Shown here: piece after piece, positions 27,291 to 30,492 of the stretch
How the letters are laid out: each line of letters begins with the position of its first letter
Position numbering within the stretch: the stretch's first letter is position 1
NCBI GenBank assembly: GCA_036561565.1
Contig: DATBPB010000066.1
Span: forward strand, 14,211 to 78,210
Reading direction: 5' to 3'
Source: Solirubrobacteraceae bacterium
Lineage (GTDB): Bacteria; Actinomycetota; Thermoleophilia; Solirubrobacterales; Solirubrobacteraceae
Length of the DNA: 64,000 bases
Position numbers and translations under genes: made by a program
The notes under the pieces: generated by a model
Seen by the model: the letters and a program-made list of their open reading frames with translations, nothing else
Database searches by the model: none
What the model was told of the DNA's origin: nothing

Positions 27291-28276
27291 GCCCGGCTCG
27301 CTTCGAGTGAGTCCTGCAGCCGCGCCAGCACGCGCACGACCCGCAGCCCGCTCTCGCCGTCCGAGCGCGGCACGCGTCCCTCGCGGATGCACTCCACGAA
27401 GTGCTCGACCTCGAGCCGCAGCGGCTCGGTCGAGGGCACGCGCGGGCTCTCCGAGGCCCCCGAGCGAGCGATGTACTCACCCCACGAGTCGGCGCGCTCG
27501 TCGAAGCCCTTGTCGTAGACGGTCAGCTTGCGCTCGAGCTCCATGTCGTCGAACGTCGCCATCCGCCGCGAGCCGACGACGGTCAGCCGCCGCTCCTTGT
27601 GCGGGTCAAGCCACGACAGGTGCAGGTGCGCGGCGAGACCGGACTCGAAGCGCATGAAGGCGAACACGACATCCTCGATGCCGGGCCGCATGTAGCAGGC
27701 GCCGCGCGCCTCCAGCTCGACCGGCTCGGCGCCGACCAGGCCGAGGATCACGGCGACGTCGTGCGCGCCGAGGCTCCACAGCGCGTTCTCATCCGAGCGC
27801 AGCTGCCCGAGGTTCAGCCGCTTGGAGTAGATGTAGTGGAGGTAGCCGAGCTCGCCGTCGGCGATCAGGCGTGCCAGCGCGAGCACCGCGGGGTGGTACT
27901 CGAGCAGGTGACCGACCATCAGCACCCGCCCCGACTCCCCCGCGGCGTCGAGCACCCGCTGGGCGTCCGCCACCGAGCCCGCGAGCGGCTTCTCGACGAA
28001 GCAGTGCTTCCCGGCCTCGAGCACCGCCACGGCCACGTCGGCGTGTGTTCCAACGGGGGTCGCGATGAGCACGCCGTCAAGCGACGGGTCGGCCAGCGCC
28101 TCCTCGAGCGACGCGCTCATGCGCGCCCCTCCCGAGACGGCCGCCGCCCGCTCCCGCGCGCCCTCGTCGACGTCGCAGCACCACGTCAGGCGCGCCCCCG
28201 CGACGGCCGCGACGTTGCGCGCCAGGTTCGGCCCCCAGTAGCCTAGCCCCGCGACGGCGAGCGAGATCTCGCTCAA
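27287..28276 (-). CDS. Gfo/Idh/MocA-family NAD-dependent sugar oxidoreductase, WbpB/WlbA-like
   Basis: Motifs: ISLAVAGLGYWGPNLARN (Rossmann fold), …EKPLA…, VGHLLEYHPA. I chose TTG at 28276 because it makes a TTGA overlap with the upstream stop. The alternative start is 28330 (track ORF). Confidence 0.75.
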   Translation of the reverse strand: MSEISLAVAGLGYWGPNLARNVAAVAGARLTWCCDVDEGARERAAAVSGGARMSASLEEALADPSLDGVLIATPVGTHADVAVAVLEAGKHCFVEKPLAGSVADAQRVLDAAGESGRVLMVGHLLEYHPAVLALARLIADGELGYLHYIYSKRLNLGQLRSDENALWSLGAHDVAVILGLVGAEPVELEARGACYMRPGIEDVVFAFMRFESGLAAHLHLSWLDPHKERRLTVVGSRRMATFDDMELERKLTVYDKGFDERADSWGEYIARSGASESPRVPSTEPLRLEVEHFVECIREGRVPRSDGESGLRVVRVLARLQDSLEASRA

Positions 28277-29508
28277 AGCCGCACCACGTTCGCGGCCGGG
28301 CGCGTGACCCCGCGCAGGTCGAGCAGGCACGGCACGGCTGAGGCGGCCGCGTCGTGGTCGACGCCGGGCTGGGCGGTCACGATCACCGCGCAGTCCGCGC
28401 CGCCGAGCGCCTCATCGAGCGGCAGCGACGCGAGCCCCGGTCCCTCGAGCGAAGGGACCAGCGCGTCGTGGTACACGACGTCGGCCCCGAGGCCGCGTAG
28501 CAGCTCGATCAGCTTCAGCGCCGGCGACTCGCGGACGTCGCCGACGCCGGGCTTGTAGCTGACGCCGAGCAGCGCGATCCGCGCCCCGCGAACCGCCTGG
28601 CCGCGGTCGTTGAGCATCCGCTGGAGCTTGGCCGCGCAGTGGTAGGGCATCTGCTGGTTGAGCTTGCCGGCGAGCTCGATGAACTCGACCGGCATGTCGA
28701 ACTCGCGCGCGCGCCAGGCCAGATAGAACGGGTCGACCGGCAGGCAGTGGCCGCCCATCCCCGGCCCCGGCTCGAAGCGCATGAAGCCGTAGGGCTTGGT
28801 CGCGGCCGCGTCGATGACCTCCCAGATGTCGATCCCCATCCGGTCGGTGAGCATCGCGAGCTCGTTGACGAGGGCGATGTTGACCGCGCGGAAGATGTTC
28901 TCGAGCAGCTTCGTCAGCTCGGCGACCTCGGGGCTCGACACGCGCACGATCTCGTTGCAGACGAGCCGGTAGAGCTCGACGGCGGCGTCGGTGCAGGCGT
29001 CGGTCAGTCCGCCGACGACCTTCGGCGTGCTCGCCAGCGTGTGGTCGGTGCGGCCGGGGTCGACGCGCTCGGGCGAGAAGGCGAGGTTGAAGTCGATCCC
29101 GGCGCGCAGGCCGCCGCGCTCGAGCAGCGGCGCGACGCGCTCGCGGGTCGTGCCGGGATAGCTCGTCGACTCGACGACGACGAGCTGGCCGGCCACCAGC
29201 ACCGAGCCGAGGTCGGTGGCGCTCGACAGCAGCGCGCCGAGGTCGGGCTCGCGGTTGGCCGACAGCGGCGTCGGCACGCAGATCAGCACCGCGTCGGCGC
29301 CGGCGAGCGGCGCGTAGTCGCTCCCGAGCTCGAGCCGCGCGGCCGCGAGCGCGGCGTCAGCGACGTCCTCGACGTAGGAGCGCCCGCCGACAAGCGCCGC
29401 GATCCGCTCCTCGTCGGTGTCGACGCCGAGCACGTCGACGCCGGCTGCTGCGAAGGCGACGGCCAGCGGCAGCCCCACGTAACCGAGACCGACGATGCCG
29501 ACTCGCAT
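28273..29508 (-). CDS. UDP-N-acetyl-D-hexosamine 6-dehydrogenase (nucleotide-sugar dehydrogenase, WbpA/WecC-like)
   Basis: 411 aa. Motifs: MRVGIVGLGYVGLPLAVAFA, …GGHCLPVDP… (catalytic Cys), and LGVSYKPGVGDVRESPA. Confidence 0.85.
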   Translation of the reverse strand: MRVGIVGLGYVGLPLAVAFAAAGVDVLGVDTDEERIAALVGGRSYVEDVADAALAAARLELGSDYAPLAGADAVLICVPTPLSANREPDLGALLSSATDLGSVLVAGQLVVVESTSYPGTTRERVAPLLERGGLRAGIDFNLAFSPERVDPGRTDHTLASTPKVVGGLTDACTDAAVELYRLVCNEIVRVSSPEVAELTKLLENIFRAVNIALVNELAMLTDRMGIDIWEVIDAAATKPYGFMRFEPGPGMGGHCLPVDPFYLAWRAREFDMPVEFIELAGKLNQQMPYHCAAKLQRMLNDRGQAVRGARIALLGVSYKPGVGDVRESPALKLIELLRGLGADVVYHDALVPSLEGPGLASLPLDEALGGADCAVIVTAQPGVDHDAAASAVPCLLDLRGVTRPAANVVRL

Positions 29509-29526
29509 TCAGGGCCAGAGTGTAGG

Positions 29527-29550
29527 GGGGCGGGTGCATGCACCCGCCCC
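29527..29550. repeat. Perfect 24-bp palindrome GGGGCGGGTGCA|TGCACCCGCCCC
   Basis: Read directly from the sequence. The centre lies between 29538 and 29539, 19 nt upstream of the ATG (29508, minus strand) of the wbpA-like gene. Confidence 0.9.
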
Positions 29551-29551
29551 T

Positions 29552-29679
29552 AGGTTCGGTGCATACCCCTTCAGGGCACACGTGCACCGAACCTGCGATC
29601 GGCGCATACCCCTGCGGGGCACATCCGCACCGAACCTGCGATCGGCGCATACCCCTGCGGGCACAGGTGCGCCGATCGC
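29552..29679. repeat. Nested repeat array: two 12-bp inverted-repeat pairs plus a 43-bp tandem duplication
   Basis: - Arm A, AGGTTCGGTGCA (29552-29563), pairs with TGCACCGAACCT (29583-29594) and, in 11 of 12 positions, with 29627-29637.
- Arm B, GCGATCGGCGCA, occurs twice (29595-29606 and 29638-29649) and pairs with TGCGCCGATCGC (29668-29679).
- The unit GCACCGAACCTGCGATCGGCGCATACCCCTGCGGG(G)CACA occurs at 29584-29623 and 29627-29665 (period 43, one G indel).
- A third degenerate core, GCATACCCCTTCAGGGCACA, lies at 29561-29580. Confidence 0.9.
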
Positions 29680-29694
29680 TTCCTGGAAGGGGGT

Positions 29695-30492
29695 TCAGCC
29701 GAGCCGGGGCTGGCGCATCCGGCCGGCGACGGCGACCGCCTCGACGCGCGAGTGCACGCCGAGCTTGCGCAGGATGCTCTTGGTGTGGCTGTAGACGGTG
29801 TCCTCGGAGAGGAACAGCTTGGCCGAGATCTCGCGCGTGGAATCCCCGGCGCAGATCAGGTCGAGGACCTCCCACTCGCGCGTCGTGAGCGGGCTCTTGA
29901 CGGGGCGCATGCCGGTGCCGTTCTCGGCCGTGTTGCGCAGCAGCTCGACGAGGTCGCGGGTCAGCGCGCGGCTGACCGCCGCCTCGCCGCTGGCGACCGA
30001 GCGCAGCGCGCGCGCGACAGCCTCGATGTCGGCGTTCTTGGAGAGGAAGCCCGCGGCGCCGGCGCGCAGCGCGCGGATCTCGACTTCGCGATCCTGGGGC
30101 ACCGAGAACATCACGACGCGGACCTCGGGGGCCTTGGCCGCGATCTCGCGGCAGGCGCCGATCCCGTCGAGCGCCGGCAGACCGATCTCCATCAGCACCA
30201 GCTCGGGGCGGTAGTGGGTCGCAAGCTCGACTGCCTCGACGCCGTCGCGCGCCTCCGCGGCGACCGTGAAGCCGCCGTCGGCGTGCAGCGAGTCGCGGAT
30301 CACGCGCCGCGCGAGCGGATCGGGATCGGCGATGATGATCCGCAGGCGTTCCGCGGAGCTCGTCGTTGGTGACACCAACTCGGCGCCCAGCGCCGGCACG
30401 GCGTCCCCCATGTCTGCGGACAGCTCGGCGCCGATCCCCCGAGTCGGGTGGTCGCCGTTGTGGCTGCCGTTGGTGCTCTCGCGCTTGCTCAT
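29695..30492 (-). CDS. NarL/FixJ (LuxR-HTH) response regulator, atypical receiver (Glu at phospho-acceptor position)
   Basis: 265 aa with a ~48-aa N-terminal extension. Receiver motifs: IIIADPDP…PELVLMEIGLPALDG…VVMFSV…GFLSKN. C-terminal LuxR HTH: LTTREWEVLDLICAGDSTREISAKLFLSEDTVYSHTKSILRKLGV. Confidence 0.85.
   Translation of the reverse strand: MSKRESTNGSHNGDHPTRGIGAELSADMGDAVPALGAELVSPTTSSAERLRIIIADPDPLARRVIRDSLHADGGFTVAAEARDGVEAVELATHYRPELVLMEIGLPALDGIGACREIAAKAPEVRVVMFSVPQDREVEIRALRAGAAGFLSKNADIEAVARALRSVASGEAAVSRALTRDLVELLRNTAENGTGMRPVKSPLTTREWEVLDLICAGDSTREISAKLFLSEDTVYSHTKSILRKLGVHSRVEAVAVAGRMRQPRLG

Follow-up and report, generated by a model that had tools for sequence, protein, structure and literature searches.

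The closest described counterparts of the locus reported here are the REP/BIME elements of Enterobacteria, Pseudomonas and Stenotrophomonas (PMC3733652). These are GC-rich palindromes of small size that number in the tens, lie outside genes with a preference for gene 3' ends and for the gaps between convergent genes, form arrays, occur patchily among relatives, and come and go at orthologous sites, and the family described below is like them in each of these respects. REP stem-loop families bear GTAG/CGTC tags (Di Nocera et al. 2013, PMC3733652). Untagged REP-like stem-loop families are known from M. tuberculosis, D. radiodurans, Bordetella, Brucella and cyanobacteria (PMC3733652); compared by description, these are also alike, being intergenic palindromes without a terminal tag or a known mobilising enzyme. 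Template switching is established as a model for the correction of inverted repeats (Lavi et al. 2018, PMC5941160). The perfect inverted repeats of that study are alike in that the arms remain perfectly complementary through evolution and ortholog changes are paired, but they are isolated repeats of Proteobacteria, whereas the units here are dispersed and stacked and have a conserved centre. In a full-text search of the published literature, including Solirubrobacter intergenic palindromes and Actinobacteria REP with RAYT, no description of the family was found, nor one of GCATGC-centred 24-bp units, of stacks in register, or of an insert at the dyad.

The window is the whole 64-kb stretch of DNA that was analysed, C66:14211-78210 of genome G000 (2.9 Mb, 71% G+C, 91 contigs). 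Both genes flanking the spacer at 29509-29694 are on the minus strand, so the spacer follows the regulator stop codon (29695) and precedes the dehydrogenase ATG (29508). There is little doubt that this spacer is a copy of a dispersed palindrome-array family, and in all likelihood it belongs to a RAYT-less, untagged, REP/BIME-like family of hairpin arrays. Copies of the family stand in gaps flanked by unrelated genes, in the genomes of a few uncultured Solirubrobacteraceae from soil. The features of the locus are given below (dots mark the centre of a palindrome or the edges of an insert).

28273-29508, minus strand: gene of the UDP-glucose/GDP-mannose dehydrogenase family, 411 aa, downstream neighbour (Pfam PF03721, PF00984 and PF03720, E 1.7e-40 to 4.3e-16)
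29519-29524, minus strand: TACACT, 10 nt ahead of the ATG, a likely -10 element for a transcript with a short leader (TA[G/C]ACT is kept in orthologous spacers)
29527-29550, no strand: unit 1, a loop-free perfect 24-bp palindrome, GGGGCGGGTGCA·TGCACCCGCCCC, identical in the ortholog of the closest relative, G005 (DNA hairpin z = -4.6)
29552-29594, plus strand: unit 2 (A), 12-bp arms AGGTTCGGTGCA and TGCACCGAACCT with the 19-nt insert TACCCCTTCAGGGCACACG between them (fold z = -5.9)
29595-29637, plus strand: hybrid unit, made of the unit C left arm, a loop and the unit A right arm, from a 43-bp duplication (z = -0.56 alone)
29638-29679, plus strand: unit 3 (C), arms GCGATCGGCGCA and TGCGCCGATCGC with the 18-nt insert TACCCCTGCGGGCACAGG between them (fold z = -5.5)
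29680-29694, no strand: 15-nt spacer from the array to the stop codon of the regulator gene, read from the sequence
29695-30492, minus strand: upstream neighbour, gene of a 265-aa response regulator whose HTH is of the LuxR/GerE type (Pfam PF00072, E 1.4e-21; PF00196, E 6.9e-20)

In the response regulator the receiver domain begins only at residue 52, and the first ~50 residues are without a Pfam match.

The repeat structure that the original prediction had described in this spacer was recovered. The perfect 24-bp palindrome lies at 29527-29550, and a repeat search showed that the arm at 29552-63 pairs with 29583-94 (12/12) and with 29627-37 (11/11), and that the arm at 29668-79 pairs 12/12 with both 29595-606 and 29638-49. 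The 43-bp tandem duplication was returned by TRF with a period of 43, 2.8 copies and 85% matches over 29556-29675, and the core was found in the spacer in three copies at 43- and 43-nt spacing. RNA folding of the spacer, as had been proposed, was run on both strands and gave z = -6.2 and -5.1 against dinucleotide shuffles, with no shuffle equally stable. The statement that nothing comparable was seen elsewhere holds within the 64-kb window but not genome-wide, where ~20 such arrays are present.

Relatives of the units were found using a scan for hairpins with arms ending GYGCA/TGCRC, by which dozens were recovered in G000. Perfect 12+12 palindromes centred on GCA·TGC numbered 22 in this genome against 0 in the reversed-genome control. 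The original prediction had considered a generic repeat of dozens of identical copies; the genome-wide search returned ~40 related units at ~20 unrelated loci on 19 contigs, which are indeed scattered but not identical. The arrays comprise 13 doublets, 2-3 triplets and some singles, and their units abut head to tail at a 24-bp pitch with no spacer. Among the loop-free palindromes, arms of exactly 12 bp are in excess, with 29 cases against 10 with arms of 11 bp and 3 with arms of 13 bp. The unit consensus is N6-GGYGCA·TGCRCC-N6', in which the GCATGC centre is conserved and the arms vary. About 15 of the units in G000 bear an 18-22-nt mini-hairpin insert exactly at the dyad, in either orientation, which reads TA-CCCC-N3-6-GGGG-CACAKG. 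Unit 1 of the window locus is of the loop-free type, and units 2-4, counting the hybrid unit, are of the looped type. Neighbouring looped units within an array share a loop subtype, which points to local copying. The outward flanks of the arrays are, on either strand, rich in T ahead of the array and rich in A behind it, and they are enriched in AAC(AG), and some arrays are flanked by inverted CTGTT...AACAG. It is unlikely that the ~20 arrays are assembly artefacts, because independent MAGs carry arrays at orthologous sites.

The family shows REP-like behaviour without two REP hallmarks, the tag and RAYT. REP/BIME units are imperfect palindromes, whereas the units here are perfect, with arms of exactly 12 bp in a 24-bp register without linkers; unlike in REP/BIME, conservation is limited to the GCATGC core at the dyad and the arms vary, the units carry neither a GTAG nor a CGTC tag, and the array ends show AAC(AG). 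The RAYT/Y1 domain (PF01797), which is expected with RAYT-associated REP/BIME, gave no match in a six-frame search of G000; the same search was positive in 6/14 control genomes, and since the MAG is 94.8% complete the gene is probably absent. Features of a MITE were also looked for: neither a target-site duplication nor a parent IS was found for the arrays, and the comparison of a filled with an empty site at C74 shows extra flank that is not part of a unit. Three readings had been offered for the spacer, and dispersal, covariation and the orthologs favour the REP/MITE-like element over both the attenuator or switch and the array of LuxR-type operator half-sites. Several further assignments were rejected. 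The arrays are not CRISPR arrays, as the units differ from each other and abut without spacers. A ~390-aa gene that seemed to be shared beside many arrays proved to be an artefact, produced when loci were cut at +/-1200 nt, and the neighbours are unrelated. Avoidance of GCATGC, which would hint at a restriction system, was not observed, the site being present in 690 copies against 215-306 for similar hexamers. An Rfam scan at a permissive E-value returned chance-level matches only, far below gathering scores.

The regulator and dehydrogenase genes are adjacent in 12 congeners, and the spacers between them were extracted. In the closest relative, G005, whose flanks are ~91% identical, three loop-free palindromes stand at the orthologous site. 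The first, GGGGCGGGTGCATGCACCCGCCCC, is identical to unit 1 of the window. The second, AGGTCCGGTGCATGCACCGGACCT, differs from unit A by one substitution per arm, the two compensating each other, and the third, GAGATTGGCGCA·TGCGCCAATCTC (GAGATTGGCGCATGCGCCAATCTC), differs from unit C by two compensated pairs; both are loop-free in G005. Arm changes between G005 and the window units affect 6/72 positions with zero uncompensated change, and their frequency is about that of the divergence of the flanking genes. In a more distant congener, G163 (flanks 81-88% identical), three loop-free units were found at the same site, the third of which (CCGATCGGCGCA..) is clearly the counterpart of unit C. As the units are loop-free in both relatives, the loops of units A and C were, by parsimony, gained in the window lineage. 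The spacers of the nine other congeners (9/12) are 41-176 nt long and have no GCATGC-centred unit. As a separate observation, in the congener G007 (G007:C33:66150-68700), the dehydrogenase and regulator genes are separated by an additional 2.3-kb insert, without a Pfam-recognisable ORF, that follows immediately on the unit 1 counterpart.

Turnover was also seen at other loci. The site at G000 C74:40204-40263 is empty, and a three-unit array stands there in G005. Loop presence or absence differs on orthologous units of G000, G005 and G007 at three other loci: the C40 unit CGCCGGGGTGCA is loop-free in G000 and looped in G007, the C29 unit CGGGACGGCGCA is looped in G000 and loop-free in G007, and unit 1 at C8 lacks a loop in G000 and has one in G005, these two versions also differing by a 1-nt indel that is present in both arms and so compensated. 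In unit 3 at C8 the centre has changed from GCATGC to GTATAC, again with compensation. The G005 array at the C24 site has looped units with 3 uncompensated arm changes, two of which recreate arms common elsewhere, and this suggests arm exchange. The looped subfamily is restricted to one genus, and with its loops on or off at orthologous units it offers a datable series of events.

At the window locus the elements follow in the order A-left, loop, A-right, C-left, loop, A-right', C-left, loop, C-right. This is exactly the order of arms and loops expected if the 43-nt segment [A-right + C-left + loop] was duplicated in tandem, which gives rise to the hybrid unit at 29595-29637, and the mutually exclusive pairings would exist because this duplication between adjacent looped units left a hybrid unit. 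The two loops form direct repeats at a distance of 43 nt, and slippage or unequal exchange between them would have duplicated the segment. The three proper units fold alone (z = -4.6 to -5.9), and the hybrid unit shows no independent folding (z = -0.56). It is missing from G005 and G163 at the orthologous site, and since these nearest relatives hold only three units there, the 43-bp duplication is recent and lineage-specific. The locus started as a three-unit array like theirs, of which units 2 and 3 then gained loops. The hybrid unit looks like an intermediate caught in the birth of a new unit.

The alternative pairings had been read in the original prediction as a possible switch. In such a locus-specific RNA switch or attenuator, exclusive hairpins would decide whether transcripts of the regulator gene run on into the dehydrogenase operon; the alternative 12/12 and 11/11 pairings do exist, and on the two strands different combinations of arms are paired in the minimum-free-energy and centroid folds. 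These alternatives, however, come from one tandem duplication that left a non-folding hybrid unit and is missing in both G005 and G163, and nine congeners carry this gene pair without any unit between the genes. The locus also has no U-tract and no Rfam family, and units of the same kind stand at ~20 unrelated loci, all of which makes a switch extremely unlikely. A cis-regulatory RNA family was rejected for similar reasons (9/12 orthologous spacers without a unit, no Rfam match). An intrinsic (Rho-independent) terminator was rejected as well, there being no U-tract at 29300-29900 and the flanks being A-rich downstream on both strands, the reverse of what such a terminator would have; a consensus scan of the same interval returned no terminator-like site. 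Elsewhere in G000, at C51:14826-14911, adjacent looped units have their right arms swapped (A-left/B-right, B-left/A-right), a hybrid arrangement that simple duplication does not explain.

The sequence TA[G/C]ACT stands 9-10 nt upstream of the dehydrogenase ATG in 12/12 orthologous spacers, and the rest of the spacer is not conserved. No Shine-Dalgarno-like sequence lies ahead of this ATG. Judging from the sequence, TA[G/C]ACT probably serves as the -10 element for an mRNA with a short leader or none; a consensus scan found no sigma-70-type promoter at the locus. Unit 1 ends 2 nt from the TACACT hexamer, and the GTAG beside it is part of the conserved flank of the -10-like element, being present also in orthologs without an array. 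Unit 1 extends over the -35 and spacer region of the putative promoter of the dehydrogenase gene, so that a local promoter effect or co-option by a regulator is possible. This placement, with unit 1 covering the -35 region, is what an operator array would call for, in which the palindromes bind the adjacent LuxR/NarL-type or another dimeric protein and control the dehydrogenase promoter, and conservation of the core GGYGCA·TGCRCC resembles that of a 12-bp dyad site. Against this, the outer 6 bp of each arm vary freely yet are always complementary, whereas a reader of duplex DNA would conserve their sequence; the arrays lie mostly at gene 3' ends, including six promoterless convergent gaps; and the spacers of nine congeners have no units though the regulator gene is present. 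An operator array is very unlikely, and no sign was seen that the array serves the neighbouring regulator in particular. For this locus the result does away with an attractive regulatory account that is wrong.

Covariation, which had been proposed as a check, was evaluated for the units of the family. In 64 distinct loop-free units 10/12 pairs covary, with a single G-U cell. In 14 looped units 7/12 outer pairs covary; of the inner CCCC/GGGG pairs 3/4 are invariant, the fourth deviates only in three unpaired cells, and the apical loop varies in length and sequence. The units used for the pair counts were chosen as palindromes, so that the 99% pairing is partly ascertainment, and the unbiased evidence for pairing is the reversed-genome control and the ortholog comparison. 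Covariation of the arms around a conserved centre means that a hairpin or cruciform is maintained rather than a duplex operator sequence. The strict Watson-Crick pairing is compatible with DNA correction by template switching or with use of both strands as RNA, and between convergent genes the use of both strands as RNA is expected. Complementarity of the arms would be kept up in the DNA itself, through correction templated by the hairpin (template switching), through selection for a hairpin that functions on both strands, or through both, and units and loops may shuffle by short-homology exchange through the conserved core. The arms evolve at about the rate of the flanking DNA and yet remain perfectly paired, which makes the family a natural system in which the upkeep of palindromes, by template switching or by selection on both strands, can be studied.

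Insertions were also seen within units. In G019, a genome of the same genus, an IS1595-family element lies inside a palindrome unit (L085, G019:C5:173700-177620) with an 8-bp duplication of unit sequence, CATGCACC, on its flanks; it encodes a transposase (PF12762 and PF12760) and a PIN-domain passenger gene. Outside the window in G000, the same terminal repeat, GGGGATG(N8)TGACAAACC, abuts half-units at C89:39793-39830 and C49:37-564. These three or four insertions in two genomes, with both ends read in the G019 copy, suggest that IS1595-family elements prefer the units as insertion targets. IS1397 and ISKpn1 insert into the palindromic units of BIMEs in a comparable way; alike is the insertion sequence within units, and different is the IS family, which is IS1595 here.

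The origin of the mini-hairpin was considered separately. A footprint of IS excision or a TIR remnant of the IS1595-family element was rejected on inspection, as the ends do not match on the same strand. An insertion flanked by a GGTGCA target duplication was likewise rejected, since it breaks down in GGCGCA units. The older insert form, GCA·CCCCGTTCGGGGCACAG·GCA-TGC, is a 17-nt insert with a repeated GCA. No consistent rule was found in G000 for the orientation of the loop relative to the upstream gene, the other examples all being in convergent gaps. It is doubtful, with a small chance of being right, that the 17-20-nt mini-hairpin is itself a minute mobile element inserting at the precise dyad of GCATGC palindromes. 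If this were true, these bacteria would possess an unrecognised enzyme acting on hairpin or cruciform tips, and the palindrome family would be the substrate of an enzyme and not a passive REP-like repeat.

At least 14/20 arrays in G000 lie <=22 nt from a stop codon, 6 are in convergent gaps and at most 2 in divergent ones; these positions rest on a crude GC3-based gene call, and the arrays fill intergenic gaps. At the window locus, read-through from the regulator gene would fold into a train of very stable hairpins. These would probably act as a barrier or insulator at the transcript 3' end, not as a U-tract terminator, and the dehydrogenase gene would retain its own conserved -10-like TAnACT element. 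For the array this function at the 3' end, as a barrier or an insulator, is inferred, and the adjoining -10 element may be affected as well. A serious, if somewhat improbable, alternative is a purely selfish or neutral palindrome cassette, mobile or prone to slippage, that has no effect on its neighbours and is perfect only through template switching at the DNA level. Gain and loss at orthologous sites, including the empty site in G000, the patchy occurrence among species and genera, the hybrid and arm-swapped units, and the IS1595-family insertions within units all agree with selfish or neutral DNA. The strong bias to positions just after stop codons and the avoidance of divergent (promoter) gaps speak against it, as does a three-palindrome composite a-b-c in G144, a genome of another genus, which in the 7-8 loci read is apparently always just after a stop codon with unit a first. 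Such position patterns could, however, reflect insertion preference or purifying selection rather than function. With arrays at 0-22 nt from stop codons and, in the window, at 2 nt from the probable -10 element, the annotation of transcript ends and promoters in Thermoleophilia MAGs may have to take them into account.

The distribution of the family was determined across genomes. Matches to GGYGCATGCRCC were counted against the reversed control and numbered 26/0 in G000, 19/1 in G019, 29/0 in G144 and 17/4 in G074, and were at background in the other genomes of the family examined. Across 400 sampled genomes of the phylum, GCATGC-N18-GCATGC was clearly above the control in G000 (7 vs 0); the other genomes had <=4, except one with 7 against 10 in its control. 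No unit doublets were found in a collection of viral contigs, in which carriage by phages was looked for. The G000-type loop (GCATACCCC..GGGGCACANGTGC) was present only in G000, G005 and G007, with one isolated match in an unrelated MAG. The older loop form, GCA·CCCCGTTCGGGGCACAGGCA·TGC, was found in at least 9 further congeners, and in 50 other genera of the family nothing beyond single background matches was obtained. Arrays in the 24-bp register occur in G019 and G144 too, and are mostly triplets. At the G144 loci L066, L067, L070, L072, L077, L078 and L080-L082, the a-b-c composite is fixed, with a length of 72 bp and a constant order of its three palindromes. On a reading of 7-8 loci, with no formal test, it lies 6-12 nt after the stop codon. 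Arm differences between the copies of the composite are compensated.
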